Shown here: one piece after another, positions 8,792-62,358 of the stretch | How the letters are laid out: each line of letters opens with the position of its first letter | How positions within the stretch are numbered: position 1 is the stretch's first letter | Virus record (IMG/VR): IMGVR_UViG_3300025162_000043 | Location: 1-64,000 of that record | Length of the DNA stretch: 64,000 nucleotides | Strand: one strand, 5' to 3' | From: a virus | Position numbers and translations under genes: made by a program | The notes under the pieces: model-generated | What the model was told of the DNA's origin: nothing | Seen by the model: the letters and a program-made list of their open reading frames with translations, nothing else | Databases searched by the model: none

Positions 8792-9102
8792 AATCTTCCA
8801 GTACCATTACAATCAGTGCATTTAACACTGGGATTAGTGCTAAAAGAATAATATCCATTTCCCGAACACTTACAACACTTAGGACTGACATAAAAACGTT
8901 GCAACTGTTCAACATGAATATATCGTGCGATGAATTGGTCCACAGTCTTAATTTCGACAGGAACAAACGTTGATTTCCAATGATTTTTCACCATGAGTTC
9001 CAGCATTTCAGCGTGTGAAGGTTTGTGGTCAATGAATACGGACTCTGACGCCCACTCATTCCACACTTCGTAAATTTTATGTTTCTTTGATAATTTAATC
9101 AT
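8746..9102 (-). CDS. Hypothetical protein with DnaJ-like CxxCxGxG zinc finger; C-terminal 14 aa derived from the IS cassette
   Basis: CCKCSGNG...CTDCNGTG; tail STTRDPEGSGLARL. Confidence 0.65.
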   Translation of the reverse strand: MIKLSKKHKIYEVWNEWASESVFIDHKPSHAEMLELMVKNHWKSTFVPVEIKTVDQFIARYIHVEQLQRFYVSPKCCKCSGNGYYSFSTNPSVKCTDCNGTGRLSTTRDPEGSGLARL

Positions 9103-26100: not shown

Positions 26101-29100
26101 CTGGTGTAAAAACTATACTATTAGCAGATGATGGACCACTGAAACCAACCGAAGGCAGTTTGTTGAAATGAAATTTATTATCAAGTTTTCGAATGTTATA
26201 GAGCGTGTCGATACCATCTTTAGCCATGATGGCTATATAAGCATTTGCTCCAATCTTGGAACCAATATGCTTAACTTTGGCAGTTAATCCATAGCTCTGC
26301 ACAATCTCTTCAATGATTCCCATCTCTGTTTCCGATAAAGAATTAGCTGACTGCGAAAGGGATGGTATAGTTGCCAAATAATTAACTAGAACGTCAGGAG
26401 TATCAAAGTGTTGAGATTCTCCATCGGAAGTTTTAGATATAGACTTCTTATTGCTCTTATCATAGACAATAATTTGACCCGTTGAATTATTCTTATATAC
26501 GTTAACAGTGTCAGAAGTCCCGTCTATTAACTTGAATCCAGAACTGGCGAGTACTACATCAATCTCTTGGTCAGAAGGAGGGGTTAATATTTTTTTTTTG
26601 TCTTGCGGAATATTCTTAAGATATGCGACAAGTGCTGGTAAACTGTCAAAAGTACTCATACTACCTGCGCCATCAACCAATGTGGACTTCGGGAAAGGCT
26701 TAATAGTAATAGTAGAATCATAACCAAAACTATTAGGCTTAATATACTTGCTTATAACCGGATCCCAGTTAAACCCCGCAGTAGAAAGAATTTTTTCATA
26801 CATTGCTCCCGCTTTGGACCCCTTTGGTGAATCCTGTGGTGGAGCTAAAATAGGAGACTGTGTGGCTCCTGAATAATTGACCTTTAACCATTCCAAAGCC
26901 TCTTCAATTTTCTTGGTAATAACAACCGAAATATGGTCCTTGTTGAGAACAAGAATCTTGGCAACATCATTCGGAAAGAACTTGACTGTATCGGCAATAG
27001 TCTTATGAACATACCATACATCAGTGCCTACCATCTTTGGTTCAAATCCTAATTTCTTTATTTCATTCTCATCTTCTGTAGTTAGACGAATGGTATGAGA
27101 AGGTGGTTTATCAATGCCTACATGAGCCGTGTAAGATGCCTTTGATAACGAGGGATAACCCATTGGAGTCGATGATACCTGCGCCATAATTGATGGACTA
27201 GTGGGCGCAAAGATTTGATGCGCTACCTCCGATGCAACTTGAGTAAGCAGCGAGAAATTATCTTCGACAAAACTATAAGTCTGATTCCAGTTGGCAAAAT
27301 GCCAATTTTCATTTTTTCCATCAGTAAGAAAATGGGTAACCACATAGTTCTTGCCCTCGGAAGAAATAGCTTTCTTTTGAATAATAAGAGAAATAAAATC
27401 ATACCCTCCAATCGTGATTGCAAAAGTCACACTTACACCTGGCATAGCATTGGGTACAACTTTAATGCCACTGTGTTGACTTGCGAGAATTTGTAATGTA
27501 TGCACTTCGACCGAAGACATTGCATTGCTGGATTCAGGAGTAATATAAGTGACTGGTGGAGGTGCCCCCACAGATGGAGACGTAGGAACAGCTTTGGACG
27601 GAATAATCTTTGGCGGAGGCGCTGTCATCGACAAACCAATCCATGCCTTACCTTCATCATACTCTGAACTTGGTAATGGCAATGCATTAGCCGTCATATT
27701 TTTGCAATGCTCAAATGCAGCACTCCAATTGTCAGATTTAACACCAATCATTCCAGTGGACTTGACACATCCCATAAACGTTCCGTCGGAAAATGCATAG
27801 AACTGGAATCTATTATCGTTCGGAAGATGTGCCTTATAATAACTATTTGAAGGTCTCCATGCCATCTTGCATTCTTCTAGCAATTTGGTTTCCTTATCGG
27901 CACTCAACTTAATTTTAACCTTTTCCGAAAGATATTTATCCTTTTCCGACATTTTCGTCGGAGTTGATGGTGCATAATTATACTGCCCAGGCGTAGATTT
28001 AACGAAAGAACTAGCATAATGCTTTAGTATTTCTTCAAGCTCTGGCCAAGTGGCAAATACTTGAACATCGGCATCCATCGAATCTGCAATAGAAAATAAT
28101 CCATTCTTATGAAACTTTACTGTATATTTGTAATTAACAGTCTCATTCTTCTTATTCGTAAATGGAGCGTGAACAGTCCATTCCTCCCCCGACGGGGACT
28201 TCACAAATTTGTTCTTCTCCAAAAATGTCTGTTGCTCTGGTGTAAACGGTTGAACAGGACTATGAATGGTCGATTGAATGTCCTTCTCTATCTCTGGATG
28301 TTTGCTAACATACGGAAGTACACGTAGAATAAGCCGCTGAATAAGTGTAGATACATTTGGAAGATAGCGAGATAAACTGATAATTTTAGCACGACGATCC
28401 AATTCAATTGTTGGAACATACATACCACCCTTATCCAAAAGTTCTCCATTATTATGATACAAATCATAGATATGATCAATCTGACCCGCCATTGCCTCAA
28501 TATCTTTGCTTTTCGCTTTTGGCATCAAACTCATGTATGCTTCTACACCAGCCCCCCACTTAGGTCCACCATAACCCTGATTCCATTTAAACTTGTTATA
28601 GCCAAGCATGATGTCGTTCCATGTTAATCCCGATTTATCAATTGCCTTCTTGAGTTTAAGAATAGTGTGAGGACTAAGACGACCAACAGCATAACTTGGG
28701 TTGTTAATACTCTCGGTGAATCCTGTAAGTCCTTTTTTATACTTAAGCAAATACTTATTCGTAAGTACTTTTTTCTGATCTATCCACTGCTTAAGTTTGT
28801 CCTTATTAACTTTCTTAAGTTCATCCGAATAATCAACTGGATCATCTTCTGACTCGGCTCCTGGTGGAACTTCCACAGGAGGCATGTCATAATCAGTATC
28901 ATCAGGCTCCAATGGCGTTTGAACTACTGAAGGTTCTTCTGGTTCTGGCTCAGGTTCAGCTTTCGGTTCAATAGGAGGCTTACCTACTATTGGCTCAACA
29001 GGCTCAGCGGAAGCCGCATCCGCAGGATCAGGAGACATTGGCGAGTAATACTTACAGAACTTTAATAGACGCTTGACAGCATCTTCATTCCCCTTCATAA

Positions 29101-29833
29101 CCGGAATTTTCTCGGCAACAGCAGCATTAAATTCTGATTTGGAAATCTTACCCGAATTTTTATTATAAATTCCAACCAACTTATGACGAAACAGTTGCCA
29201 GTCGGGACAAAGAGAAATAAAATATCGAAATTCTTGAACTAGCGTAAGACGCAAATGCGCCATTAACATATCAGAAACTTGAATAACAACTTCGTCAAAC
29301 ACTTGATCAATAATCTTACGAAGTCTGAAAGGAACAATAGAAACTCCACTTGGATGAAATTCAACATCATTCCAATCGGGAACAAAGAAAACACCCATAG
29401 TATTCCCACCTTGTAGACCAGCCTGAGCGATAGCACTTTTGTATTTATGTTTTTGCTGTGGAGTAAATTCCCCCGCATACTTCGGATTATTAAGATCTGG
29501 ATCTGGTATCGGACTTCCCACAAATCTATGCATTAATTCTATCGCGTAAAAATCATAAAATATCCGTGTAGCACTCTCACAAGTCTTGGGATCGCTCTTT
29601 CCTTTCTTAAGTATGTTCACAAAGGGAGCTTTATAGTGAAGCCTAATTGCAGTTGAAGAACCAGCTTTCGCTTTGGGATCATATTCAAATGTTGATTCTT
29701 CTCCCGCTGGATTAGTGTAATTCATCGTCGCTTCTGTCAAAGCGTTATCAATCTCAATTGAACTATACCCATGCATTATAGGTTGCCTTATTTGAATCGA
29801 TTGATACAATTGGTCTTTAAGTAAAATAGCCAT
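17105..29833 (-). CDS. Giant 4242-aa modular repeat protein, function unknown
   Basis: Uninterrupted 12.7-kb ORF with internal duplications; TATTTATA motif upstream. Confidence 0.85.
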   Translation of the reverse strand: MAILLKDQLYQSIQIRQPIMHGYSSIEIDNALTEATMNYTNPAGEESTFEYDPKAKAGSSTAIRLHYKAPFVNILKKGKSDPKTCESATRIFYDFYAIELMHRFVGSPIPDPDLNNPKYAGEFTPQQKHKYKSAIAQAGLQGGNTMGVFFVPDWNDVEFHPSGVSIVPFRLRKIIDQVFDEVVIQVSDMLMAHLRLTLVQEFRYFISLCPDWQLFRHKLVGIYNKNSGKISKSEFNAAVAEKIPVMKGNEDAVKRLLKFCKYYSPMSPDPADAASAEPVEPIVGKPPIEPKAEPEPEPEEPSVVQTPLEPDDTDYDMPPVEVPPGAESEDDPVDYSDELKKVNKDKLKQWIDQKKVLTNKYLLKYKKGLTGFTESINNPSYAVGRLSPHTILKLKKAIDKSGLTWNDIMLGYNKFKWNQGYGGPKWGAGVEAYMSLMPKAKSKDIEAMAGQIDHIYDLYHNNGELLDKGGMYVPTIELDRRAKIISLSRYLPNVSTLIQRLILRVLPYVSKHPEIEKDIQSTIHSPVQPFTPEQQTFLEKNKFVKSPSGEEWTVHAPFTNKKNETVNYKYTVKFHKNGLFSIADSMDADVQVFATWPELEEILKHYASSFVKSTPGQYNYAPSTPTKMSEKDKYLSEKVKIKLSADKETKLLEECKMAWRPSNSYYKAHLPNDNRFQFYAFSDGTFMGCVKSTGMIGVKSDNWSAAFEHCKNMTANALPLPSSEYDEGKAWIGLSMTAPPPKIIPSKAVPTSPSVGAPPPVTYITPESSNAMSSVEVHTLQILASQHSGIKVVPNAMPGVSVTFAITIGGYDFISLIIQKKAISSEGKNYVVTHFLTDGKNENWHFANWNQTYSFVEDNFSLLTQVASEVAHQIFAPTSPSIMAQVSSTPMGYPSLSKASYTAHVGIDKPPSHTIRLTTEDENEIKKLGFEPKMVGTDVWYVHKTIADTVKFFPNDVAKILVLNKDHISVVITKKIEEALEWLKVNYSGATQSPILAPPQDSPKGSKAGAMYEKILSTAGFNWDPVISKYIKPNSFGYDSTITIKPFPKSTLVDGAGSMSTFDSLPALVAYLKNIPQDKKKILTPPSDQEIDVVLASSGFKLIDGTSDTVNVYKNNSTGQIIVYDKSNKKSISKTSDGESQHFDTPDVLVNYLATIPSLSQSANSLSETEMGIIEEIVQSYGLTAKVKHIGSKIGANAYIAIMAKDGIDTLYNIRKLDNKFHFNKLPSVGFSGPSSANSIVFTPDWDKMISCLHEQLKPYKIEPADPSLQNLNNSLSETEIGIIEAIVFSYGLTAKVKYIDHPIGNAYIHIVAKDGVDTLYTIRKLDNKFHLQKIPLFDSPILEPVVIAPEWEKLILYLHEQLKPYKIEAPDKPTDKPAEGITLKDYQQIKEAVDSYGESVWSEYVHAAYGQSAYVEVTHKPKFDEPGTIIFSIGKLGNFYQINDDQNKPKDNSPTLAGIIARIHSILSAIASQAEVHPEILKMIGDLATSANFNSIKPEEGKSLTYVKGGNETISVGPHGAVTYTHKGVMGPIHTKNPQVFTNWFQIYYLKGQVPDTAAKFNNSILNLLNSGEFLEQDKFTILHSKKVNAIKALRVYIMQVTGGPCGLAKTKWAIENLGQFLDYIKLHGLPNMDGNNDEFLVHLGEPPPAGDVPTKLLDDEKKTIGDIVIEHLPNLSGYDPTGDAMIIWGWVGDNSVNYKITKEENVYRVYTDNHTNKNGEWIIQKQVSTFNELTAYIEDLVTHIAKALKNSKLKHPLAKTTPSHNPEKLSVTEVEELKKLVKKFKLTISTMYTKKLTEDTSSPEEAYSLGISDPVHKVWLKITKDEGEYVISKGVNDAYFPIRKFNTFEKMLVYLDYYLNSYVKEEPTEVDKIDDDELKIIKDLVKEYKPKAKVRRKYMTSKESGGKVPYVFIETGELDSGGKNYVLSKMADGTYKLFEANNSFDEWKIISTANSWEEIYDVISKEMKNEPLPDEGNIVPEGKLASLMANAGYNYINTTTLALDANVSKNAKVYDNDEDERIYLFDDGSSRVWYKETKETPSGSKVMVGFKTIPELIAWMEMKYENKVSSELIDIQNQLEVIGFKTENKFHQWTTKWDKTSISNLKPVIDHVELHADGSSTVTPARSVLAGTSKPKSFFFNTYAILKQYLTDKYLKPKSWIDAYFTQVLVKGKFQKIEDQLTEMGFKWTNDKLIVVPFPSGGVMQTVDDSDPISFSYESTYDLAKRIDILLEYSDDYVGLGWSTGDESLNDIIIKSGFVYHGQENSQEGTDLIFLHSNGTKLHYYTLDGNSEIVFPATQANLAFTNNQDLKNYLSGAAGMSTTSQWPSQQSSDDDYAKSYYDDLGHYTNVYSIRLTKEDDDRMKKLGWIFKPSHETNSVAAYYNSHGYRAVFYNRKVDESKPVCRISDMNKLVKEFGLHLYKYPYQVVTFLEANPSASYGLTPDKFSTNDGSILTNDFNAKNLITKDLKDIGAPAGSIDSIYFQSSHASENGEIHILGGNVLKFAIGKKIVGTNVVWYIRQAVSDDPSGMYRVYTFVEHHKDAMVEWIKNNITNLVTHKSIKDADGHNLGQAEGPLNDQGEMYYPGPEILDLLKSKGFKSENLSAYGNKWVHPSGFYFELYEKAINWHFSQGAKGFGILKDDQPKFLEKALANVTPGVNEEAIDQMFIAAMPSQEDTDHEMGAMTPSGKAYKTHDVEGNADMIWLNVHDAELLQLMEFMPFPSENPLYKNPQGNIIKFFDTGKAEYIDYFGHPDKPENGEVTTFDNIPHALKFVVVKHSVFSNQDYKSDVGGNVVEIQLNPHDDAIMKQLGFHFDKANMKYIKELGSNDMSKVQEAINKDAIKDDKYEVFTAYDTGYAIWQYFEKDTEEQTEEGKILIVLAFIWKRWKHKLAGNIKTIPVDTQQDLPGPLEPVNVAINKPNASQTFLDLDSFQAPPFAHKDFGNRGFEYDPSTKSYYKKYNEFVGTCIKWTGNVYVISHPHTTDEKIYTYREFSSSDLYYVLVTIKKIENADFGNFVQSEDDALKKGDANYFNAPNGWTPYQPYAPKKNPTNIKPEDWIHKELDAYGFEWMPDSAMYSWKDINGKVGTSWQAVRFDKNGTIVYFYHTAEGNPRYFCSKDFSQIQLRIEKYFLMGTSTGAPKKIYPLDPKNYSPTVPEWNTYSVTNKAVKLIDSDHKAVLQAGFVFNATTNTYENYKTKDKFKIFEEGFVWYKFTGMGEGGGMDNSIGHFFDMLKSKYGELEWGFHPLSKYEIDQLKSKMKIIGFAEQTNKLVPNDLYFDKLLPDNKTTLKIKEVVVVFPNHTMEFCLYDTAGVDRLLGSFVFESLTYGLHVLEDHNTSGIKLLLATDLSAELILQGFIYVSEETRYEHAFGSGGLKVCITFFGNGQAQAQLMRPDNSEGYEEVKEKKFTNFYDAILWSASKNFEASTPEHSTMSSLKQSDEVPYSGHDYNQPSKDPKKKPVYTTISLILQDEETLNKMGFHRVQTEHMIWYEKVGIAQLVEFFGDGHASIKDMGIGTKKDQFPTVKECLQFLWDKFKPSGTGTTSGIGTTIKGKILPPQEIGTSTKGKVSSPMPFSEYDYSGWAKNTKHNPDATIKLVPADDLVMQKLGWVTSQDNNDAYYYSNSKNGDIIYFFVNGHARMIDSTGKKFDFITVKSVMEQLWITSPLSTAHEKEPIVEKIKEKIKEFGFKYIDTNSPKSYPILFTKFTSTFQYAINYHVEKQTIEFTKSNAKPTKGYHKILEEWTLSVPEAIEKLETLFGGSPSIKGNKKKKVLAGTEDMPWSGTDYLQWGKVALKVIGTGKGMSIHLAEVHTLKQMGWNEVGNSKVGYSYENGNEKMIFHPSGFTEYWSDKNGQPTQNWQEIEMPIRWLWKNKGSAKQSDEVPYSGHDYNQPSEDPKKKPVYTTISLIPQDEETLNKMGFVRVKTENVIWYEKTGIGQFVEFFADGHASINDMGTGTKKDQFPTVKECLQFLWDKFKPSIQGNEKKKVLAGTEDMEDMPYSGATYKIKDSHHYPTTVNLYDENVLKSIGFERDTNVKGYFKKISDTIDEVFEVFDDGTSQWRTWTTPDANAPLLVISTDPTKFSSVKEGMEFLWNKHKPSTQKKPKVTGEMTYSGTDYAEWWKNYWADVPPNTSIALNSDDVHTLAKIGFVEKINDGPDTDIAFKVIYENKGGTDRAFFFASGIGAYWKTPEDGPYYHNTVKDLMQFLWDKYSVFIEEGIIKDLVSMIMEHPHTAKLLK
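17888..19520 (-). repeat. Near-identical ~310-nt intragenic duplication (about 17888-18197 and 19210-19520)
   Basis: KQSDEVPYSGHDYNQPS...CLQFLWDKFKPS occurs twice. Confidence 0.9.
25723..26345 (-). repeat. Tandem ~110-aa intragenic duplication
   Basis: SLSETE(M/I)GIIE...HEQLKPYKIE occurs twice. Confidence 0.9.
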
Positions 29834-29916
29834 AATTTGTTACATAGTATAAATATACAGGAACAGTGGAAAGGAAAAAAAAAAAAGAATGGGACGAATA
29901 TGATATATTTATTCTA

Positions 29917-30546
29917 ATGCAACAAAAAGATAAAATACCAAAATGGAAACGTATCTTAGACTATACATTAATTATAATATTATCTCCTATCTTACTTATA
30001 ATTGGTGCTGGTATAGCCCTATCGATAAAACTGAGTTCACATGGTCCAATACTATTTTGCCAACAACGTATAGGACTAAACGGAAAAGAATTCACATGTT
30101 ACAAATTTAGAACAATGCATCGGAATGCAAATGCTAAAATACACCACAATTACGTACGTCAGTTAATTGAGAAAGAAATTCCAATGATTAAATTGGATAT
30201 TCGGGGTGATACTAGATTATTATTCTTCGGAGCCACTCTGCGCGCCACTGGATTAGATGAACTTCCACAACTAATCAACGTACTATGTGGAGACATGAGC
30301 ATTGTCGGTCCACGCCCATGCACATTATATGAATACAAATTATATGCGCCTCGGGATTATAAAAGATTCAGTGTAGCCCCTGGACTAACTGGACTTTGGC
30401 AGGTTAGTGGTAAAAATAAAACCACATTCAAACACATGATTCACTTAGATATCGAATACTCCCAACATTTTAGTATTTGGTTGGATTTGAAAATTATACT
30501 GAAAACTTTTCCAACTCTCATTAAACAATGCTTGAATATTCACTAA
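29917..30546 (+). CDS. Bacterial sugar transferase (priming phosphoglycosyltransferase, WcaJ/PglC-like domain)
   Basis: KRILD-TM, FCQQRIG, YKFRTM, LDELPQLINVLCGDMSIVGPRP, PGLTGLWQVSG. Confidence 0.93.
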   Translation: MQQKDKIPKWKRILDYTLIIILSPILLIIGAGIALSIKLSSHGPILFCQQRIGLNGKEFTCYKFRTMHRNANAKIHHNYVRQLIEKEIPMIKLDIRGDTRLLFFGATLRATGLDELPQLINVLCGDMSIVGPRPCTLYEYKLYAPRDYKRFSVAPGLTGLWQVSGKNKTTFKHMIHLDIEYSQHFSIWLDLKIILKTFPTLIKQCLNIH

Positions 30547-30556: not shown

Positions 30557-30606
30557 ATCAACAACCCCTACCCTAAAGGGACAGGGGCTTCCTTGCTCCC
30601 AAGGAT
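30557..30606 (-). mobile_element. 50-nt single-hairpin IS200/IS605 derivative
   Basis: TTCAC|ATCCTTGGGAGCAAGGAAGCCCCTGTCCCTTTAGGGTAGGGGTTGTTGAT. Confidence 0.7.
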
Positions 30607-30613
30607 GTGAAAT

Positions 30614-31013
30614 TGGTGGACCTGCCGAAGATCTGCCCTTCGGGTCTCTATAATAGAAAACTTACAATACTACAAGTTTAGTTCGTTGGTGATTTCTGCC
30701 GTTTACTTACGAACACCTGAGCGGCATATCCATACACTGGTATGTCAGCAGTAATATGATTGGAACCATATCAAGTTTCACCCGCTATAGAGCCGTGGAT
30801 TTTGTAGCGAGTATCCTTATCCACGTCCGAATTATGCCAAAGCCAACTCGAAAACTGACTCCTCAACATCGTTAAGCGACATCTCAAAATCAATTTCTGC
30901 AATCTTATTTAAGCGATTGTCATCTGTCTTCGGTCAGATTTTATGCTGTCCATCCGACCAACCAGCACTTGCATTATAAGCCATCAATCATAGATCGAAT
31001 CTATTACAGGCCC
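30614..31013 (-). ncRNA. ssrA: tmRNA
   Basis: GGGCCTG/CAGGTCC-ACCA acceptor with G3.U70, GATTCGA motif, pk1-like region, tag ORF 30921-30832 ending ELALA*, TTGACA promoter upstream. Confidence 0.92.
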
Positions 31014-31060
31014 ATTTCAATAAATATACCAGACCCCATCAAAGGTGTCAAGTTTTTTCG

Positions 31061-31128
31061 GTCAACAACCCCTAGGTCGGAATTCCTCCCCAAGGCTAAA
31101 GCCGTTGGGGCTTCCTTCCTCCAAGTAA
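31061..31128 (-). mobile_element. 68-nt IS200/IS605 derivative inserted in a gene 3' end
   Basis: After TTCAC; hairpin with TTTAG loop; ends GTTGTTGAC; excision restores ...GIFTEKT*. Confidence 0.78.
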
Positions 31129-31511
31129 GTGAAAATCCCCTTCTCCTCAGAATACATAACATCTTTGATAACTATCTTGTCAACTTTAACCTCTGACCCA
31201 TTCTCAAAATATACATCCCCCTTAATAGTAAACTGAGTTTCGTGAATACTGTCAATATCCCCCTCCTTTACCACAAGCCTTATGGCTAATGTATCATCAC
31301 TCCTAAATGCCAGACTTAATACATCAACTTTAATGTGATCAAAATACATGCTCACACAAGGACGCTTATCTAACTTCTGATTGAACTCTTCCACGGCCTC
31401 ACGTAATATATAAGGATGAAACTCGTATTGCTTAAATACAGGCGGAGTCACAATAGGATGATAATAATTAATCCCCCGATCCATTATCACACTCTCAGAA
31501 TCAAATCTCAT
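31062..31511 (-). CDS. Hypothetical protein, C-terminus IS-derived
   Basis: ORF track. Confidence 0.55.
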   Translation of the reverse strand: MRFDSESVIMDRGINYYHPIVTPPVFKQYEFHPYILREAVEEFNQKLDKRPCVSMYFDHIKVDVLSLAFRSDDTLAIRLVVKEGDIDSIHETQFTIKGDVYFENGSEVKVDKIVIKDVMYSEEKGIFTYLEEGSPNGFSLGEEFRPRGC

Positions 31512-31562
31512 AGCAATGAATAAAAGACAAATGCAATATAATGCATATGAAATAAACACAAA

Positions 31563-32632: not shown

Positions 32633-33964
32633 GTCAACTACTCCTAGCCTAAAGGCATAGGGGCTTGTAATACTTCCTTACTAGCAGAAGATTTACATAC
32701 AATTGGCGAATTGACTGTCGCCTGCCCATAAGTCAGATTCGAGGTCTGTGATACGGGAAGTTTGGATAATTTTGCTATATTTATACTAGCATTGATATCC
32801 GCATCATAAACAAGACCGTTTTTAGAATAAAACCTACAACCATGTCTTTCACCTTCAATCTTACCGCTTACGCAGTCAGTTTGAGAAGTATAAGATGGGC
32901 GAACGAAAGTTATGGTTTTACCCATATTCTCTGCCTTATATGTTATTATTCTACGGAGTTCAAACATCGGTACTTGACTAATGTTTCTCTTATTTTGATA
33001 TCTATTTTTCTTTTTCTTTATTCCTTTGAGATTTTCTAATACAATGGTGTCGGCATTAGTTTTTAATACTTCATTGGCAATTAAATGAGTTTGATTTTTA
33101 TTTTGGTTATGCTCTTTATGACGCAGTTTGTTAAGATGTTTTTTGGATGATTTATTACTTTTAGATTTAAGACAATCTTTTAAATGTCTTAACTTACGTT
33201 TATTACCATTAAATTTTTTATCAATAATTAATCTACCATCTGATGTGGCGGCACTACGTCTAATTCCTATATCAACCCCCAATGCTAATTTCTGGTTTAA
33301 CATTTCTTTTGGTTTATTTTCAAAACAAAAAGAAATAAACAATTTTCCATTATTTTCGTAAATAAGCGGATCTTTATATTGATATTTATCCAATAGTTTC
33401 TTAAGTTGTGGATAAACAACAAATTTAAAAGACTGTCGTTTGTTATTAGTGGTAATTCGGATGGAATATTTATCTTTTTTATCTTGAGAATAAAGTCGTT
33501 TATCAAGACGCATTGATAAATTCTTCTTAATAATTGGAAATTTTAATTTGTGTTTATTAGATTTTGTGGATTTGTAACTGGAAAGACACTCCTGTTCCGC
33601 TTTAATAATTACTTGAGATGGAATGTTTGAATATTGTTTTCGAATATTATTATAAACTTTAGAATGGAGAATTATCAGCGAATTCTTTTTTTCAGTAAAT
33701 TGAAGTTGGGAAGCGAAGTTAAATACTATTTTATGCATATCAAGAATTGATTTCAGCGAATCAAAATCTTCTTCATTTTTCATTAAAAGTTGAGTATTAT
33801 AACTTAGCACACTAATATATATCATTGAAATTATCAAAACATCAAATTATTTCAAAATAAATGATTTTTCTTTTGTTGACATTTGGAAAGGATGTGTTAA
33901 CATTAAGAATGGTCGCAATTCCTCCGCTACCCTAAAGGGATAGCGGTTTCCTTGCTCCAAAAAT
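32633..33964 (-). mobile_element. IS200/IS605-family element carrying tnpB only (IS1341-like)
   Basis: TTCAT|ATTTTTGGAGC left end with hairpin; right end GCCTTTAGGCTAGGAGTAGTTGAC. Confidence 0.9.
32644..33837 (-). CDS. tnpB: RNA-guided nuclease TnpB (start uncertain)
   Basis: RuvC motifs LGVDIG, IVLENL, DADINASINI intact; YTSQT motif; degenerate Zn finger. Confidence 0.92.
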   Translation of the reverse strand: MIISMIYISVLSYNTQLLMKNEEDFDSLKSILDMHKIVFNFASQLQFTEKKNSLIILHSKVYNNIRKQYSNIPSQVIIKAEQECLSSYKSTKSNKHKLKFPIIKKNLSMRLDKRLYSQDKKDKYSIRITTNNKRQSFKFVVYPQLKKLLDKYQYKDPLIYENNGKLFISFCFENKPKEMLNQKLALGVDIGIRRSAATSDGRLIIDKKFNGNKRKLRHLKDCLKSKSNKSSKKHLNKLRHKEHNQNKNQTHLIANEVLKTNADTIVLENLKGIKKKKNRYQNKRNISQVPMFELRRIITYKAENMGKTITFVRPSYTSQTDCVSGKIEGERHGCRFYSKNGLVYDADINASINIAKLSKLPVSQTSNLTYGQATVNSPIVCKSSASKEVLQAPMPLG

Positions 33965-34198
33965 ATGAATATGCCGTTCAAATCACCCCAAGAAGCTATC
34001 GATGCCTGTGAAGCCGAATCCCTACGAGCCTGGCAAGAATACCTCGTAACTAATAAACTCGACCCCGAGAAATCTCCCAAAGCCTGCGCAGCCGCTCATC
34101 GTGTGTTCCACGCAGGTTATATCGCAGGCGCTAAATGGGTCAGCGGTGCCATCATCGAAAAAATGATGGCAAATGACAATCCAAACTTAATATGGTAA
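33965..34198 (+). CDS. Hypothetical protein
   Basis: ATG abuts the IS left end. Confidence 0.6.
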   Translation: MNMPFKSPQEAIDACEAESLRAWQEYLVTNKLDPEKSPKACAAAHRVFHAGYIAGAKWVSGAIIEKMMANDNPNLIW

Positions 34199-39300: not shown

Positions 39301-40014
39301 TTACATTTTCACAGTCTCTTGTTCTCCAACATGGAGGACTTCTGTTTTATATTCTTCTGATTGACTGCAATAACCACCTTCATAATGCCCATAGTAAACA
39401 TTCTGAGGATCAAAGATTGTTCCGAGTTTTACTTTTTTGCATTCACATGCATAAAGATTGCCCCGAGGAGTACAGAACAATCCACCACAGCAACCAGCTT
39501 TTTGACTGCGATTGCCCCAGTTTTTAGCCCTGCCCATTGCTTGAACATAAGTTATTTCGCCATTTATGTCCCTGCAATCGTATTCATTCTGAAAGTTAGA
39601 CGCATATAAATCTTTTTTAGGGCGTTGAAATGCTTTGCGTACTTTATCAGTAACCATACTTTTATCATGGTATTGATCTTGAGATAAACGACACCCAATA
39701 ACTCCGCGCTCTGCCAAGTGTGCAAGCGTAAGAGAAACATTCTCATTGGTGCCGTTAGTTACCATAAACACAGCAGGAGACCCCAGACTATTGGATTGGG
39801 ATGCTAATTCCCATACAGCATACATAAGGAATTCCTGAAAAAGTGGATGCAAAGTAGGTTCTCCGCCTCCAATAGTAATTGAACAATCCTGATCGGAGAC
39901 AAGTTTAATTGCCGCGTGGAAAGTTTCCCTGCTCATATCGGTTCCCTTGGCAGTGCAAGCAAAACAGCAGTGACTGCAAGTCATATTACATTTTGTCGAA
40001 ATCTGTATATACAT
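39301..40014 (-). CDS. Radical SAM protein
   Basis: CNMTCSHC, GGGEPTLHP, VTNG. Confidence 0.88.
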   Translation of the reverse strand: MYIQISTKCNMTCSHCCFACTAKGTDMSRETFHAAIKLVSDQDCSITIGGGEPTLHPLFQEFLMYAVWELASQSNSLGSPAVFMVTNGTNENVSLTLAHLAERGVIGCRLSQDQYHDKSMVTDKVRKAFQRPKKDLYASNFQNEYDCRDINGEITYVQAMGRAKNWGNRSQKAGCCGGLFCTPRGNLYACECKKVKLGTIFDPQNVYYGHYEGGYCSQSEEYKTEVLHVGEQETVKM

Positions 40015-43907: not shown

Positions 43908-46277
43908 ATGATAAATAAAAATCTTTGTGGTAAAATGAGAACGAAAGACAATCCTTATGAAGTCTGGCAATCCCTTGATGGGAGTTGGACATGGAAAGTT
44001 TTGAAAAAGTATCAAACTCCCGATAAAGAAATGAGCAATTCATTCGCTCGGTGGTTCTGTTATGTGACATCTCCCTTCTGTCCGTTCGGTGAAATGGGAG
44101 ATACTTACATTAATGAAATTAAAAGTCAAGCCGTCAAAATCTTCATTTGACAATTCGGTGAAACGTGCTAGGTTAAATATATGAACGCTAAACAATTCCG
44201 AATCGTAAAACTTGCCGTAGTGGTAAGAGAAAAAGATGCTGAATCAATTGCCGACCAACTGTGCAATATTTCATGCGACTTTGGCATCTATACTATGAGT
44301 GCCACGGAGAGCATTCCTACTCATGCAGAATGGAAAGAGATATTAGAGAACGTGCCTGAAGAAATACTCGGTGAAACAGATGAACAACAACGGCGGGATG
44401 AAAAGCATGGGCTTTATGGTGATAAACAAGATATTAGTAATTAACAATTAAACAAAACAAAATAAAATGAACGCAAAAACAGCAACGAAACTAAATGAAT
44501 TGCAAAATGCAGCAATTCCATTGGCCCTGGTAATCAATAGCCGGACACTTTGCATCCTCACTGGCAAAGTACATAAGTCAACAGCCAAGGCAATAACTGC
44601 CGCATTGACTAGAGTGCTTCCCGCAACAATTGCCAATCGGATTATCTATGGCGCAAAGCATCGGGAATTTGTAGCGTTGCCCGAAGTCGTTGAAATGTCG
44701 TGCCCTATGTTTTACTGGCTAACTTCTGAAGATACATACAAATTGGCACTGCCAGAGATTACTGCCATAATCAATCAACAGAATACGGAAACCCTCAATG
44801 CCTATGAAACATACAGACTGGCGTGTGAACAGGGAGTAGCCGTACCCCCTGAGAAATAACTATCAACTACAACCCCAGGGCTAAAACCCTTGGGGTTTCC
44901 CTCCTTCAAAATATGAAACAAGTAACTTGTAAATCTGGATTAAAAGGATGGCAGGGCCATTTGCGAGAGAATTATGCATCCTTCAATGAGTTTGAATATT
45001 TCTCGGAGCAAAATGGACTTCATGCCAGGCTTGGGTATAAAACCGCTTTAGCGGCTTGGCACAATAATCCAAAAATTCAAGGCTCGGTGAATCCCAGTGA
45101 TTATCGGAGGGTTCGGTGAAAACAATATACTTTCAATTAACTCTCAATGTTGCATTTGACCCGAATGGAACTACTCCTGCTGAATTGAAAGCAAATCTAT
45201 TACAAGTTATTAAGGATGCCACAAGTAACGGCACACTGACAGGAGAGACCCCCGCAACCGTGAAGCAGTATGCTGTTTCGGTGAATCAACTTAAAAAATG
45301 ATGTTATGTCATATTTTGCCCATCTTAAAGCGAACTGGAAAGTTGCCGTGAAATGTTTGGCTTTATCCACCTTTCATTTTATTCATGGTATTGTTCCTTG
45401 CAAATATACCGAGCATGAATATTATGGGTTTAATTTCAAAAAAGATAGTTGACATTCTTCCCCCGAACTGTTATTCTTAGTGGCATGAAAAACAAATGGA
45501 TATTAAGAAATAGAATGTCAACACAGGAATTTGATAGTTTCCCCTATGCTTTCCGTAATATGTTCGCTATTGTGAAAAAGAGTGCAGAGACAGGAAAGCT
45601 AGAGGAAACAATTAAAAGCATAAGAATCATTAGTCCTCAAAAAGATAGTTATGGAGACCCACGAAAATATAACTATACTGCCGCGTGTGAAATGGCTAAA
45701 GCAAGCGGACTTCTGAGTTCTGATGATCAAATCAATTCAAAGGAATTCAAACGAAAATGAAACAAATCACTTAACGTGAACTAAAATTTTATCCATTGCC
45801 CCGCTTATGCGGGGTTTTTTATTGCCCACCGAATATAAGAAATACTGGCCAGTAAATTTTATTTCAAACGCACTTGACATTTTCCGAAAATGTGGTTTAT
45901 TCGTGCTATGACAAAAATTGAAGCCATAGCATATCTTCGCAAGAAAGTACTTTTGGAAAAGAAAGCTGCACTCAAAGAACAATTCAATGTTGCTCGGCGG
46001 GAAACCGAAGAAACAATGAGAGAACTTGAAGAAATAGAGAAAAAGAATTTGACAAATCAAGAAGATGATATAAAATAATAATATGACTAACAAAAAAAGA
46101 AATTCATTGCCGACGGTGAAACAATCCATTGCTCACATTGAAGCTACAGACTATAAGTTAATGCACCGCAAACGAGGATTGTATATCTTTCGCAGTGAGA
46201 CCCGTCCATTACATGCCAGAGAATTAGCATTCACCATGCGAGAATTGCGGGATGCTCACCGAGGAATTGGATTTTAA
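43908..46277 (+). CDS. Plus-strand series of small hypothetical genes (43908-44150, 44181-44444, 44467-44859, 44913-45119, 45116-45301, 45485-45760, 45908-46078, 46083-46277)
   Basis: ORF track; several leaderless promoters; terminator at 45798-45822. Confidence 0.65.
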
Positions 46278-48576
46278 GACACAATTTCGTAAGCATCTTT
46301 CGGCAATCCATAATAAGTATCCCCGTCATAGGTTTCAAAGAAAACAGGATTCAACGTCTCTACGTTGAGTTCCTGCCATTTTCGTAAGGTAATATCCCAT
46401 GTCTCATCCAATTTCGGTTTGTACACCTCAACCAATATATCTCTGAGAATTCTTATTTTAGTCATATTGATATATACTGGCCAGTAAATGTTTACGTATC
46501 CATTTTCGGTGAGTAAACAAAAAAAGACCCCATCACTTGATGGAGTCTTCGGCAATAAAAAGAAACTATTTAGAAATTGGACGAGTAAGTATGATTATAC
46601 GAAAGACTGTTTCGCCCTCAAGGAGTAATTCCTGATTATCATTGATAAGTTGTACAATCTTTTTACCTTCAATCAAATCACCCTTTTTAATCATCTTGTT
46701 CTCATCGTATGTCATTTCTACACTGGGCACCCAAATTTGAGTTAGTTTCATATTTTTCCTTTCGTTGCGGAAACCCCGATGGCTTTAGCCTCGGGGAGGA
46801 GCAACGAAATATAATTAATAATTTCTGTTGACATTCTTCTTAATTCCTGTTATACATATCACAGTTCTTTGATACATGGTTTGGATAGTAGAAAATAATT
46901 GCTTCTATCCAGTAAAATCAATCAAGCATCGTTTTGTGAATAGACCAGAAGGCACTCCGCTTGCGGAGGAACCGTTATGTAGGGTCTTTGACTCACAATC
47001 AACATCCTCCTCATTATCCGTTAAGGATAAACTGGAAGGCAGGCCACGGTCAATTGGCCAACCGTCTGTAAATCTTTCTTGAATTATGTTAAGCATAAGC
47101 ATTAGAGTCTGGCAAGCCCCGACCCTTCAGGGTCGCGGGTAGTTGACATTTTTACACCCTTACCCACCAATTGTAATGCATCATCGCTTTCAATGGCGAT
47201 CAATGTCCAATCGCATATATCCCCGCCAGTATCACTAAGACCATCAAGATCCCGCAATCGGAAATACTCCATGTCAAAACAAGGATGCTCCATTGCAATT
47301 CTACGAATGGATTTTAATGCTTTTATCATCTCAGCTTCGGCAGATAGATTTGTCATAATTCAGTATATTCCACCGAGACAGAGGAAGGAGTAGCTAAATA
47401 TGGAGAAGCACAATATTTCTTCTTAGCTTTCTTCTCAGCCGCATTGTGAGAGCCAGCTTTGATATATCCCCTCTCAAGCCCATTTACATAAACAATAAAG
47501 GTTTTCATATTATTTTTAATCGCCGCTGTCAATTTTGATATATGCCTCTGCAAGATAGATATAACGACATCCTTCTACCTTAGTGAATGCCCCAAGACTA
47601 CAGCCAGCATTCCCCTTTGGTAACATTTTGGCAATCTCACTTCTCCATTGCAAGGAAGTACGAGACGAAACATTGTCATAAGTGGTATCATCTGGATTGC
47701 CTTTAACATATACCAAGTAATTGAAATGGTCATAAGACCGACCAAGCGGTTTACTTCCATTCTCAACGATTGCTATGTGAATAGACTCAAGGTTAATTGT
47801 CATATTGTTATTTAATCTACAAATTCATGATCGGCAAATACTTTTTCAATAGGTTTCAGCTCTGCCTTTGCTTTTGGTTCTGGACTTTTTGTGGCGAACA
47901 ATCCTACTCTCCATCCTAATTTTAACAATGCCTTATCAAGTGCATCGTCATAATCATATGCTTCCACTTCAAAAGAATTGTTATTGTCTTTATAGTTATA
48001 TACAGTAAATGTTCTCATATCTATACAATACACCGCTTGCCTAAATTGTCAAATTCTTTTTCTGATTATTTTTATCGTTCGGGCCAACCATTGAGGATGA
48101 CAGCCACAATCATAATAAGGATAGCCACAACGAGGACAACATTCCCCACAAATTCTTATGTGAGTCATAAATGAGTCAGTTACTTTATCTCCTTCGGGAA
48201 ACATAGATATACGTCTCCATCGGTATTTCTAACAATAAAAGAATTGTCATTGGGAAGATATACAATTTCAGAAATAGTAATAACATCACCCGTACTAATT
48301 GTAATTTCATCTCCTGGCTTCAGATTCTTTCTCCAATCTTTACAATTGTCTGAAACCGTTGAATTCTTAGCTGTCTTTATTTTCATATTGTTGACTCAAC
48401 GCCTGATATATTTTTCGGGTATATTCCGCTAAATTCATAAATTGTTCTTCCGTATAAGCCATAGACTTCTCTTCTATTTCTCTTTGTTTATTCTCCGCAA
48501 TCATAGCCTGCATCTGACATTCAGAATAAAATAAAAGTTCTGCTATGGCCATCTCGGTTGTATTGTCTATAATCAT
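46274..48576 (-). CDS. Series of small hypothetical genes (46274-46465, 46566-46751, 47102-47356, 47353-47508, 47516-47803, 47812-48018, 48180-48386, 48367-48576)
   Basis: ORF track; duplicated 45-nt promoter at ~48015 and ~48573. Confidence 0.55.
46752..47147 (+). mobile_element. Second copy of the 396-nt promoter+omegaRNA cassette
   Basis: Near-identical to 8396-8791; after TTCAT; ends GTAGTTGAC. Confidence 0.88.
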
Positions 48577-48670
48577 ATCTATACAATACACCGCTTGCCT
48601 AAATTGTCAAATTCTTTCTCCGATTATTTTCTATTTGACATTCTCAATAGGTGTGCTATATTTATCGTAT

Positions 48671-52735: not shown

Positions 52736-53564
52736 CTATTCCTCATTATACAAAAGCATATCCGTATGATCCCCCTTGAACCTTACTCCTGTTTTATCAT
52801 ACGTTTGCTTTGTATTCTCATCATACCGACCCACAGTTGCACCAGATGCATCCTGTACCAATGTCTGAGAACCATACTTAACCTTATACCCTATCGTCCT
52901 ACCACTACCGTCTCTTATTGTCTCTTTCATACCTATACCCTAACACATTCTTGAAAATTGTCAAATTCTTTCTTCATTTTTGTTCAATCAAAATTCTTCC
53001 TCAATCTTCAGAGGAACCAATGAATAAAGCCGAATGACACTTTGACTACCCTCATGATCATACAACGAAATCAGATGGTCACTACTCATAATCGCATTGC
53101 TCAATCCAATCTCAGTGAAAATAACAGAAAACTCCTGCTCATCATCAACCCAATTCATGCGGAGAACTTCGTTATCCTCTTTCCCCGTGATCTCACTCAC
53201 AGTCACCGAATGTAAATAAGGACTGTCATCCACAACTATAACATCGGTGCGATCAATAAAATTTAGTAAATATTTAACTTTCTCAGTATTCATAACACAC
53301 TCTTGATAATTGTCAAATTCTTTCTTCACTTTCTTCGGAAACCCCCCTCTCTCCCGGGGGTATGGGAATATATGTTACTTTATTCTCAATGTCCACAATA
53401 TGGACACCCTCTCCCACCGGTAACTCCCTTGGGGGAAACCACCAAATTTCTTCACCGTAAATGGTTGCTTTATCACGTTGAACCCAGTCTTGGGCAATAT
53501 CACTCCAGAACAGATTCAAGTCATTTTCTCCAACGGGACCAATGATTAAGTATTTAGGCATAAG
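52736..53564 (-). CDS. Three hypothetical genes (52736-52930, 52988-53293, 53313-53564)
   Basis: ORF track with promoters. Confidence 0.55.
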
Positions 53565-55328: not shown

Positions 55329-55890
55329 TCACCACTTACAATTCGCAGTTATATACAACGGCGCAATAAATCCTAATGGAGTAAGAATGTTCTCCAAATC
55401 ATCGTAAGTATAATCTACATTCCTTTTCGCCACATCAACGGCAGCATCAACTATTCGGATTGCTTCGTCTGTCTTCATTCCTTGGGGAATAATAAAATGT
55501 AAATCATACTCCCTATCAGAATCTTTGTCTTGTACTGTAATCAATCTCATATTATTTTTCATATTTTGTTTACCAGTGTTAACTTGTTTTCTCTCTTTTG
55601 TATGGTGAAATTGGTATAAAATGCCAAAACAAGTTAACGCTCTCTCAATCAAATTGACTCATTCCCCGTATAGCATCGGGTTGTACCATAGTAAACGGGC
55701 AATATGGCTCTACCCTGCCACAATCTTCCCCCGATCTCCACCACTTAATGTCATAATAAGAAAGAGGTTCTCCCTTCTCATCTTCGTAAGTTACTTCATC
55801 CCCCGCAATAAATTCCTGAGACAAAAGAAATTCTTTCTCAGTGTCAAATGTTTGAACTACAAATCCAATTGTTATTTTTTTAATAATCAT
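55329..55890 (-). CDS. Two hypothetical genes (55329-55562, 55645-55890)
   Basis: ORF track. Confidence 0.55.
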
Positions 55891-56664
55891 ATATGCACTT
55901 TCGCATGTCTTTCGTAATTGTCAAATTCTTTCTCTCTATTTTTCTTTTTCTTTTCTCAACCCCCACCAAAAAACAAATACTGGCCAGTAATTGTTTGAAG
56001 AAATACTGGATAGTATTTGTTTTTTATGCCAGTAAATAAGCATACTTATGTTCGGTGAGAATAGACACATTTATATACGTATATATATGTGTAAAGAATA
56101 TTTACACTTTGTAATGCAAAGTGATTTGCAGCGCAAAGTATATATACCAGTAAATAGTATAGATAACGCTCGGTGAAATTGGGTAAATATATGCTGTTTT
56201 GCTAAGGAATATGCATATTTATCACTCGGTGAGATTGAAATGTATTTATATACGTATTGCTTTCTATTGGAATATATGTGTATGTATTCTTTATATTTCA
56301 TTCAAATTGCTCTGTATCACAGAGTAAATTACAAGAAATATAAAAACTGAGAATTTAACAAGTGAATACGTATTCAAAAATGAATTATAATATATCTATA
56401 CGTTGCATTAGAATTACTGGATAGTAATTATTTCATAAACATTAGAGTTACTGGATAGTATTTGTTTACGCATACCAGTAAATAAGCATACTTTAATTCG
56501 GTGACATTTGCATGGATAGGCGAAAGGAAACTGGAATATGGATATATGCACGTCTATACACCAGTAATAAGCATACTTTAATTCGGTGACATTTGCATGG
56601 ATACAACGTATATTTTACGATGATATCTGGGATATGTATTGGCAAAAAGAAGTAAGGAATAATT

Positions 56665-60651: not shown

Positions 60652-62358
60652 CTATGTCAAAATTTCAGCATCTTCATACCAATTATTATTTCTCCATTTA
60701 AGTGCCTCGGTAATAGTTGAAATTCCCGGTTCTATACCTTCAATATGCCAAGTTTTAATGGATGGATTTAACATTTTAAGATACCGAGCATCTTTAACTT
60801 CATTACTCAAATCAATACTATATAATTCATAATTTCCTCTTTTTTCGAGTAATTTATGGGGCAGTGAGTTCATTGCTCTTTCAACACCAACTTTCCTCAG
60901 CAATTCCCGACGTACCTCTGTATTAGTTTCCTTTAATATCATTTCACCAGAAATTTCATGGCTCGGAGTCATTACATATTCTTTTTTCATAACAACTCCA
61001 TTCAACGCATAAATCTCATTATCTCCATTATAAGATAATGCTGGACCATTTTCGCAATGTAAGCCACTATTATTCTTCTTAATTATTGTTGGTGGCTGAC
61101 AGACGATGCATAATTCATCAAGAGGAAAAACCATTCCATAGTCCTGACAATTTTTAAATGTATCATATTCGGGTGGATAGTTAATACCGCATTCATTTCT
61201 AAAGAATTCATAGAAAGAGAACCATCCTGCCCAGAATTGGCAATCAAAGTAAGGATACACGAAAGTCAACTCTTGTCCATTTAACTTAACTTGTTCCCCA
61301 ACTTGTGAATCAACTTGTGACTCAACTTGTGACCGAACCTGCGAATAAACTTGTGATCTAACTTGTGAATCAACTTGTGACTCAACTTGTGACCGAACCT
61401 GTGAATTAACTTGTGATCTAACTTGTGAATTAACGTGTAGCCTAACTTGCGAATAAATTTGTGACCTAACGTGTGATCCCACTTGTAACCATACTTGTGA
61501 ATTAACTTGTGAACCAACTTGTGACCTAATTTGTTCCCCAACTTGTGAATTAACTTGTGAACCAACTTGTGACTGAACCTGTGAATAAACTTGTGACCAA
61601 ACTTGTGGATTAACTTGTGATGCAACCTGTGACCTAACTTGTGACCCAAATTCATAATGAATTTGCGATACAACTTGTGAATTAACTTGTGACCAAACTT
61701 GTGAACTAACTTGTGACCAAACTTGTGACCCAACTTGCAATGCAACTTGTGACCAAACTTGTGAATTAACTTGTGATGCAACTTGTGAATTAACTTGTTC
61801 CCTAACTTGTGATCTAACTTGTGAACTAACTTGTGAACTAACTTGTGAATTAACTTGTTCCCTAACTTGTTCCCTAACTTGTGAACTAACTTGTGAACTA
61901 ACTTGTGAATTAACTTGTTCCCTAACTTGTGACCAAACTTGTGAATCAACTTGCGAATAAACTTGTTCCCTAACTTGTGACCCAACTTGCAATGCAACTT
62001 GTGACCCAACTTGTGACCAAACTCGTGAATAAACTTGTGACTCAACTTGTGAATTAACTTGTGAACTAACTTGTGAATAAACTTGTGACCAAACTTGTGG
62101 TCTGACTTGCGATTTGATTTGTTCTTGAGATTTATTAAAAAGTAATTTAACAATACTGACCGCAATCCAGCATTTTAATGGAGAATCAAGAATTACGACT
62201 GGAGCCACGGATTTTTTTAAGATGTTTTTTTGAAACAGACTAAAATCAATGATGGCATTTTCCAGAGATTTCGGTTTAATAGTCAGTCCCTTTTCTGTCC
62301 AAAGTTTAACATATTCTGGAAACTTGTTGATTTGTAACTGTGATAAAGTGTTAATCAT
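60652..62358 (-). CDS. DUF6745-like protein with a long (xSQV)n tetrapeptide repeat
   Basis: C-terminal LHCENGPA..Y.LNGV, NTEVRRE, PS...HIEG; ~270-aa repeat. Confidence 0.75.
   Translation of the reverse strand: MINTLSQLQINKFPEYVKLWTEKGLTIKPKSLENAIIDFSLFQKNILKKSVAPVVILDSPLKCWIAVSIVKLLFNKSQEQIKSQVRPQVWSQVYSQVSSQVNSQVESQVYSRVWSQVGSQVALQVGSQVREQVYSQVDSQVWSQVREQVNSQVSSQVSSQVREQVREQVNSQVSSQVSSQVRSQVREQVNSQVASQVNSQVWSQVALQVGSQVWSQVSSQVWSQVNSQVVSQIHYEFGSQVRSQVASQVNPQVWSQVYSQVQSQVGSQVNSQVGEQIRSQVGSQVNSQVWLQVGSHVRSQIYSQVRLHVNSQVRSQVNSQVRSQVESQVDSQVRSQVYSQVRSQVESQVDSQVGEQVKLNGQELTFVYPYFDCQFWAGWFSFYEFFRNECGINYPPEYDTFKNCQDYGMVFPLDELCIVCQPPTIIKKNNSGLHCENGPALSYNGDNEIYALNGVVMKKEYVMTPSHEISGEMILKETNTEVRRELLRKVGVERAMNSLPHKLLEKRGNYELYSIDLSNEVKDARYLKMLNPSIKTWHIEGIEPGISTITEALKWRNNNWYEDAEILT
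61290..62110 (-). repeat. 12-nt tandem repeat array (core AACTTGTGA on +), roughly 68 units
   Basis: Seen directly; encodes xSQV. Confidence 0.95.

Follow-up and report, generated by a model that had tools for sequence, protein, structure and literature searches.

Probable protein-less IS200/IS605-family cassettes with a TnpB-type guide RNA scaffold abut start codons in a freshwater giant phage

Results

Two copies of a 396-nt cassette lie among small genes in a 64,000-nt stretch of viral DNA (hereafter the window), which is the first 64 kb of the 78,054-bp IMG/VR virus record IMGVR_UViG_3300025162_000043. This record (G000) is a fragment of a freshwater giant phage; it carries a perfect 4836-bp inverted terminal repeat, and its CheckV completeness of 22% indicates that it represents about 22% of a jumbo phage genome. 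The cassettes, A (8396-8791) and B (46752-47147), are both on the plus strand, show ~98% identity to each other, follow the pentamer TTCAT and end in GTAGTTGAC. When they were deleted in silico, coupled ATGA overlaps reappeared, in which the upstream open reading frames (ORFs), with 107 and 71 open codons, reach their stop 4 nt into the next start codon. An initial annotation of this DNA, whose sequence statements all proved correct, had predicted these restored overlaps, with the proteins ending in GRL* and VKI*. With the cassettes in place, the two upstream proteins both end in STTRDPEGSGLARL*, as that annotation also reported, and have nothing else in common. This tail comes from the right end of the cassette (the minus-strand reading of 47116-47147 encodes part of it), so that the cost of the insertion is 14-15 additional amino acids on the upstream protein, while the downstream ORF is intact.

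We then considered the family to which the cassettes belong. Terminal inverted repeats are lacking, and each end consists of an imperfect G+C-rich hairpin, located 22 nt inside the left end or 7-8 nt inside the right end; the same subterminal-hairpin anatomy was seen in all copies and relatives. A fixed motif is found on the left side only, either TTCAT (30 sites) or TTCAC (5 sites), whereas all copies end in (G/T)TTGAC and then diverge into mutually unrelated right flanks. No target-site duplication was found around the elements. Subterminal hairpins without inverted repeats are the anatomy of the IS200/IS605 family; in contrast, a miniature inverted-repeat transposable element of a DDE transposon was rejected, because both the terminal inverted repeats and the target-site duplication are missing. 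Both IS200/IS605 ends are intact and the cassette holds no conserved protein-coding gene, as in the elements known as PATEs. Its ORF at 46876-47082 (68 aa) was rejected as a gene or TnpB remnant, being broken in a second phage record (G001) and unrelated to TnpB, and ordinary terminators were also rejected, since neither hairpin is followed by a T-run on either strand. Taken together, the cassettes are very probably non-autonomous, protein-less members of the IS200/IS605 family (PATE-like). The initial annotation had recognized them as insertions but had not named the IS200/IS605 family or a guide RNA.

The boundaries of the cassettes are backed by independent copies with other flanks (L010, L014, L038, L041 and loci in records G001 and G003), confirming the earlier proposal of insertions with exact boundaries at TTCAY. 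The flanks of separate copies diverge exactly at 47148, and metagenome contigs from four lake and freshwater runs over 46200-47700 are interrupted or depart from the window precisely at 46747 and 47147. The same cassette type was found at different sites in G001, G003, L038 and L041, and with other flanks in lake metagenomes. Moreover, compensatory changes in L010, L038 and G003 preserve the left-end hairpin.

Over its final ~170 nt, the cassette can be aligned with the 3'-terminal part of a tnpB element located elsewhere in the window (32633-33964). Both contain a 24-nt core, with a C-G pair of one replaced by G-C in the other, and the core GGCAGGC(C/G)AC(G/A)GTCAATT(G/C)GCCAA together with three stems is common to the cassette and the 3' ends of tnpB genes. 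An exact-pattern scan for this omegaRNA core yielded 12 viral and 28 metagenome loci; no exact match was present in the GTDB genomes, and thus no host lead was obtained. The consensus fold of 23 distinct copies (7 of them protein-less) contains 27 pairs, 17 of which show compensatory changes, defined as both sides changed with pairing retained in at least one sequence. This fold is strand-specific, with a consensus energy of -18.45 on the top (tnpB) strand versus -8.11 (5 pairs) on the bottom strand, and the 73 G-U cells versus 10 A-C cells also place it on the top strand. Hence, tnpB-linked and protein-less copies have in common a structured RNA at the element 3' end, on the tnpB strand.

A different assignment of this RNA was weighed, namely an IscB-type (HEARO-like) guide RNA on the minus strand, which would be made by operon read-through and take its guide from the 3' end of the upstream gene. 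On the minus strand, weak matches to HEARO (RF02033) begin precisely at the right end (22.3 bits, E = 0.19; 17.6 bits for the tnpB element), IscB scaffolds are derived from the right end and externally transcribed, and the IscB element ISGst5 has TTCAT as its transposon-adjacent motif (TAM) (PMC10055086). The 5' end of HEARO is indeed the reverse complement of the same right-end type (GUCAAC-UA-hairpin-CUUG), pointing to a shared type of transposase end. However, neither score comes anywhere near the gathering threshold of 83 bits, little more than the right-end hairpin common to both is matched, and the conserved fold of the cassette lies on the opposite strand, so that HEARO membership was rejected. 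In addition, the same block lies on the sense strand of tnpB gene 3' ends, only 5 pairs (-8.1) form on the bottom strand compared with 27 on the top strand, and the conserved promoter described below points the opposite way. An IscB-type RNA is thus very improbable here.

All seven full cassettes carry a promoter at the same place, consisting of TTGACA (TTGAAA in one), a spacer of 16-17 nt, and a -10 hexamer (TATACA, TATATA, TATAAT, TATATT or TATAGT). The promoter of cassette B was read directly, because our strict promoter scan requires a T at the end of the -10 hexamer and hence skipped 46828-46856 (TATACA). Two alternative scaffold modules follow the promoter among the seven cassettes, which makes the cassettes mosaics. 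By analogy with TnpB biology (PMC10055086), the guide would be the segment directly beyond the right end (47148-47167 for cassette B). Start-abutting copies are all antisense to the host operon, which makes the guide segment antisense to the 3' end of the upstream gene. One could also regard the cassette as a domesticated, no longer mobile module that supplies either a promoter together with an RNA antisense to the upstream gene or the guide of a TnpB-like regulator lacking nuclease activity. The conserved promoter fits this idea, since its transcript would enter the 3' end of the upstream gene in antisense, and TnpB relatives exapted as RNA-guided transcription factors have been reported (10.1101/2023.11.30.569447). 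On the contrary, the ~98% identical copies at unrelated sites, with more in other phages, indicate recent mobility, the ends are intact, and the TnpB of the window keeps its RuvC triad, all of which leave domestication little credence.

The 1332-nt tnpB element, a tnpB-only member of the cassettes' family that also holds an omegaRNA region, is inserted in TGA-TAT|ATG, ahead of the gene at 33965-34198 (+); the initial annotation had listed position 33964 as a small element, but it is the left end of this tnpB element. The tnpB ORF (32644-33837, minus strand, 397 aa) matches PF07282 with 47.6-51 bits and PF01385 weakly. Its RuvC triad, D (GVDIG), E (LENL) and D (DADIN), aligns to the ISDra2-type structures 8EXA and 8H1J.

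The element ends further allowed the cleavage motifs to be compared with the five bases just 5' of the hairpins, and the two were found to covary. TTCAT goes with the guide GGAAA in all 30 such left ends and TTCAC with GGAAG in 4 of 5, whereas TTGAC at the right ends of the cassette/tnpB family goes with nCAAG. In a second family of the same phages, TTTAT at the left ends is accompanied by GAAAA and TTCAT at the right ends by GGAA. Pairing involves positions 3 and 5 of the motif and positions 2 and 5 of the guide, and the covariation follows the DNA-guide rule of IS608-type TnpA. Covariation of TAMs and transposon-end motifs (TEMs) with guides has been reported for the ISGst elements of Geobacillus, whose TAMs also include TTCAT and TTTAT (PMC10055086).

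The second end family, with the TAM TTTAT, is represented in the window by an element at 5738-6029 (-), whose right end reads ...GGGGTAGTTCAT, and by a partial copy at ~4660-4829 (-) that spans the repeat boundary at 4836. The element has the left-end hairpin CTCCTTGGTCTTCAGCCAAGGAG, a promoter TTGACT-N16-TATATT and a gene-less interior of ~230 nt, and the family is multi-copy in G005, G001 and G003. Two promoter modules of this family bracket a tRNA cluster at 4867-5237 (-) with Leu-CAA, Gly-UCC and Gly-CCC, and a weak fourth tRNA-like match lies at 5091-5161 (35 bits). A third end type (…AGCATTCAC) occurs at 68-110.

A question arising from these insertion sites is how they relate to the genes of the phage. 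TTCAT is the reverse complement of ATGAA, which holds both ATG and TGA. Four elements had been listed as abutting the ATG of a gene; the ORFs of all four were verified, and a fifth case (44913-45119) was added (Table 1). The five genes all read away from the element. We next pooled the insertions of G000, four related records and the pattern-scan loci, deduplicated by 40 nt of flank. The results showed that 24 of the 30 TTCAT insertions in these phage and metagenome contigs abut an ATG opening at least 45 codons. The ORFs include several unmistakable N-termini (e.g., MKKILVTGGAGYIGS and MKTCIYPGSFDPVTFGH); an internal Met of a long ORF was hit in 0 cases, with at most 36 in-frame open codons upstream. 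Among the non-start insertions, at least one, at position 245409 of G005, coincides with the stop of an ORF of 133 codons. G005 is a complete relative of 368,758 bp with direct terminal repeats, distantly related to the record (~25 matching proteins, 31-72% identity).

In these phages, about one gene in three opens with ATGAA, and gene starts account for 214 of the 2133 ATGAA sites (10%) in G000 and G005. Against all ATGAA sites (start share 0.100), 24 or more of 30 would arise with a probability of 3.5e-19. When survival is allowed for, this probability is 1.2e-4 for starts, intergenic sites and the last 30 nt of genes (start share 0.455) and 0.0075 for starts and intergenic sites (start share 0.571), although these survival nulls are crude, resting on a home-made gene model and counting promoters and the elements themselves as intergenic. 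In these counts, starts are thus commoner than the crude survival nulls predict, contrary to the outcome that the initial annotation had named as refuting. In contrast, the TTCAC sister lineage, whose motif is antisense to GTGAA, was at starts in none of five cases, its sites being intergenic or at gene 3' ends. Because the family and the selection are the same and one letter of the target differs, the motif itself creates the start association. Overall, the link to starts is due to the target motif and the loss of gene-breaking insertions rather than to any sensing of starts: TTCAT is antisense to ATGAA, roughly a third of genes begin with it, and insertions into genes are lost.

The initial annotation had gone further, proposing a low-damage strategy of targeting gene junctions, with a built-in ribosome-binding site (RBS) and stop codon. 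In a stronger form, the target and the left-end bases would be an adaptive safe harbour, evolved for start junctions and restoring translation, with a designed stop. Apart from the excess over the survival nulls, this idea draws on what the left end offers to the downstream gene. In the cassettes it reads CGAAAGGAAAAAT|ATG, as had been noted, with AAGGA 5-6 nt ahead of the ATG. Native starts in these phages favour A at -7 to -2 and T at -1, and every left-end variant gives a native-like context (AAAAAT, AAAATT, AAGAAT or AAATAT). On a 12-nt start-context matrix, left ends score 1.54 bits on average, compared with 0.90 for real starts and -0.87 for random ATGs. Stops in or near the right-end hairpin loop (CTAAAG or CTGAAG on the gene's strand) would, on the same view, end the upstream protein.

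Several observations speak against such a design. AAGGA is confined to the 396-nt cassette lineage, whereas tnpB-type left ends read TCCTCCAAAAAT (CCTCC) toward the gene and have no Shine-Dalgarno (SD)-like motif. Before starts, SD-like 4-mers occur at 7.7% in G005 versus 8.9% at random positions, i.e., no SD usage, and at 22% versus 7.6% in G000. Therefore, a classical RBS is not what matters at these junctions, and what is left of the claim is its weaker form, that all left ends give an A-rich context with T at -1. We treat the right-end stop codons as incidental, arising from a hairpin loop containing TAA/TAG plus chance, and nothing marks the built-in stop as a designed feature. The TTCAC lineage also sits at gene boundaries without any start association, TTCAT is equally a TAM of Geobacillus elements in a quite different type of genome, and recognition by TnpA may hold both the loop and the first left-end bases constant. 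The start-like left-end bases may reflect either selection on host-gene expression or the requirements of TnpA. As for low-damage targeting, survivors do sit at junctions with small damage, but there is no recognition of junctions, and we regard the adaptive safe harbour as a doubtful, though conceivable, alternative to the preferred explanation by motif and survival.

No cassette-free allele was found for either cassette by any search. Protein searches of the locus with three flanking genes returned nothing or the transposon-encoded tail only, and homologues of the 118-aa upstream protein comprised one near-identical sequence with the same tail and two truncated ones, with no empty site. When five related phage records were compared at the nucleotide and protein levels, the elements were recovered but not the flanking genes. 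Likewise, 32 in-silico empty junctions gave 0 matches across all sequence at hand, no contig of the four lake and freshwater runs over 46200-47700 joins 46751 to 47148, and neither the cassette nor a 20-kb stretch was matched in the phage GenBank collection.

Table 1 Features of the window, with the two cassettes, the tnpB element, the relics and the start-abutted ORFs
Feature	Position	Strand	Remarks
TAM TTCAT and cassette A	8391-8395 and 8396-8791	+	At ATGA overlap of 8792-9102 (-) and 8174-8395 (-)
Target/TAM TTCAT of cassette B	46747-46751	+	Antisense of the ATGAA opening gene 46566-46751 (-); inter-copy homology begins at 46747
Cassette B, very probable protein-less PATE-like IS200/IS605 element, 396 nt	46752-47147	+	Left end, promoter, omegaRNA scaffold, right end
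Left-end structure	46763-46806	+	Outer stem CGTTGC/GCAACG; DNA guide GGAAA 46769-46773; imperfect hairpin 46774-46796
Sigma-70-like promoter	46828-46856	+	TTGACA-17-TATACA, directed at the right end
TnpB-type omegaRNA scaffold	46978-47147	+	Portion aligning with tnpB 3' ends; invariant core 47038-47061
Right end	47116-47147	+	Imperfect hairpin 47116-47140 and transposon-end motif TTGAC 47143-47147
Predicted omegaRNA guide	47148-47167	+	~16-20 nt of right flank; antisense to 3' end of gene 47148-47356 (-)
tnpB-only insertion sequence (IS), 1332 nt	32633-33964	-	Left end 33964; right end ...GTAGTTGAC at 32633; hairpin ~32640
Two-hairpin relic, 68 nt	3252-3319	+	Left and right end only; follows TTCAT 3247-3251; adjoins ATG of 3036-3251 (-)
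Single-hairpin relic, 51 nt	44862-44912	-	Adjoins ATG of gene 44913-45119 (+)
Relic of TTCAC sub-lineage, 68 nt	31061-31128	-	Left-end guide GGAAG; in final four codons of 31129-31559 (-)
Single-hairpin relic of TTCAC sub-lineage, 50 nt	30557-30606	-	Intergenic, just past stop of sugar-transferase gene 29866-30546 (+)
ORF opened by abutted ATG	8174-8395	-	73 aa
ORF opened by abutted ATG	46566-46751	-	61 aa
ORF opened by abutted ATG	3036-3251	-	71 aa
ORF opened by abutted ATG	33965-34198	+	77 aa
ORF opened by abutted ATG	44913-45119	+	68 aa; absent from the initial annotation

Four relics of such elements are also present in the window. The relic at 3252-3319 lies within the terminal inverted repeat, and a second copy is thus found at the other end of the record. 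The relic at 31061-31128 swaps EKT* for a 22-aa tail on its host gene, and direct reading agreed with the earlier statement that its deletion restores ...GIFTEKT*. Between the two TTCAC-type relics, ~450 nt (30607-31060, minus strand) contain no ORF and form a candidate non-coding RNA with no Rfam match, with a TTGACA-17-TATATT promoter at the upstream end (31060) and a G+C hairpin near the end.

Apart from these elements, the window shows several other features. Between 35600 and 56450, ~30 copies of the palindrome TACTGGCCAGTA occur in intergenic blocks beside the repeats AATGATTCGGTGA and TTGTCAAA. Promoter-like repeats read on the minus strand (TTGACA-16/17-TATTGT/TATAGA) are found at 48015-48072, 48573-48630, 52927-52984 and 55887-55944; these blocks end only ~5-10 nt ahead of an ATG, so that a set of small genes may have leaders that are very short or missing altogether. 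A 4242-aa ORF at 17105-29833 (-) contains internal duplications of ~300 nt (17888/19211, 93% identical), and a 568-aa ORF at 60652-62358 (-) contains ~60 tandem 12-nt units at 61203-62000. The gene at 29866-30546 (+) encodes a bacterial sugar transferase (PF02397, 195 bits), and the auxiliary genes at 13877-15025 (-) and 39301-40014 (-) are ADP-ribosylglycohydrolase-like and radical-SAM-like, respectively.

Discussion

We consider it highly probable that the cassettes are PATE-like TnpB-omegaRNA elements that are moved in trans and survive at gene starts by virtue of the TTCAT motif. In this scheme, which follows the known chemistry of the family, a Y1 HUH TnpA supplied in trans would move the cassettes as single strands and insert them immediately 3' of TTCAT without duplication, finding TTCAT and TTGAC through pairing with the 5-nt DNA guide just 5' of each subterminal hairpin. 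The cassette's own promoter would drive a TnpB-type omegaRNA whose final 16-20 nt are the flank past the right end. TnpB from the 32633-33964 element or a relative could then use this RNA to cut the cassette-free allele (TTCAT plus flank), and recombination after the cut would copy the cassette back; on co-infection, the cassette could also be copied into a competing phage. Insertions within genes would be lost, leaving surviving copies flush with start codons and antisense to the operon, where the upstream protein gains a short tail and the downstream ATG, keeping an A-rich, T(-1) context from the left end, would continue to be translated.

The complete relative G005 has 16 PF07282 (tnpB) hits in its 368,758 bp and one Y1 tnpA (PF01797, 85.7 bits), located in an element with a cassette-type left end and the layout TTCAT|left end ... 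tnpB ... GTTGTTGAC. This sole tnpA-bearing element of G005 spans 321843-324440 (locus L097, G005:320410-323694). An HNH-endonuclease-like ORF (161 aa, CHYCG...CCKGCN) and a 124-aa ORF lie between its tnpA and tnpB.

Several findings weigh against the proposed scheme. The tnpA ORF of G005 has only 95 aa, keeping the HUH motif and the Tyr but missing the N-terminal ~30 residues, and no Y1 tnpA was found in the 78-kb record, which covers ~22% of the genome. A tnpB-linked omegaRNA with the exact GGCC core type of the cassette, which would point to its cognate TnpB, was not found; the zinc ribbon of the window's TnpB retains two of four cysteines. Moreover, no empty allele was recovered in the searches above, and the excess of starts over the crude survival nulls (P 1e-4 to 8e-3) leaves room for more than motif and selection.

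The closest known counterparts are the PATE and ISGst1-5 elements of Geobacillus stearothermophilus. PATEs are protein-less, have conserved ends and "often encode omegaRNAs" requiring TnpB in trans (Meers et al. 2023, PMC10055086), i.e., a TnpB encoded elsewhere; ISGst1-5 recognize a 5-nt TAM and a TEM via covarying DNA guides and use the same words, TTCAT and TTTAT. In Geobacillus, TnpB cleavage of the empty site followed by recombination retains the element (PMC10055086). However, ISGst1-5 reside on a bacterial chromosome and the present cassettes in freshwater jumbo-phage genomes; TTCAT goes with TnpB here but is the TAM of an IscB element in Geobacillus; and the cassettes, unlike ISGst elements and PATEs, have their own conserved sigma-70-type promoter and a leader of ~115 nt. 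The tnpB element resembles ISDra2/IS1341-type elements in being a tnpB-only IS whose omegaRNA scaffold covers the ORF end and the right end, with the flank as guide. In contrast, the ISDra2 TnpB is very distant in sequence (E ~1e-5), its TAM is TTGAT rather than TTCAT, and the TnpB here has the reduced zinc ribbon mentioned above. IStrons, which combine an IS605-type element with a group I intron (10.1101/2023.11.20.567912), likewise lower the cost of sitting in or near genes, but here this is achieved by junction position and not by splicing; no group I intron was matched by Rfam in the window, nor near the elements at E up to 10.

The consequence for start codons is a tidy and little discussed property of a known kind of element. 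We found no literature linking a TTCAT TAM to start codons, and the Geobacillus study (PMC10055086) does not discuss it, the words "start codon" having 0 occurrences in its text. It is possible, though we hold it only tentatively, that the TTCAT clade has gone further and adapted to the start junctions of gene-dense genomes without SD usage, the first six bases of its left end restoring the native A-rich, T(-1) start context and the cassettes serving as a dispersed guide set for gene drive or exclusion at co-infection. If this were true, each further cassette would supply another guide, and with a single TnpB the set would attack competitors lacking the cassettes at a number of gene junctions.

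The finding explains why unrelated proteins carry identical C-terminal tails, why ATGA overlaps are split by ~400 nt, and what the small "ORFs" of the cassettes are. It also documents a jumbo-phage lineage loaded with this family (16 tnpB hits per 369 kb), in keeping with the frequent occurrence of TnpB genes in phages (PMC12607003). Judging from their sequences, the compact TnpB (397 aa, TAM TTCAT) and the guide-RNA cassettes with natural promoters might possibly be of use as a tool. IscB elements are strongly co-oriented with the genes upstream of them (PMC10055086), and the same relation between TTCAT and ATGAA may account for part of this. The TTCAC lineage provides a natural control that parts the effects of the motif from those of selection. 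Overall, RNA-guided transposons can persist in gene-dense phages where a target antisense to ATG-AA, with its TGA, makes gene boundaries survivable.

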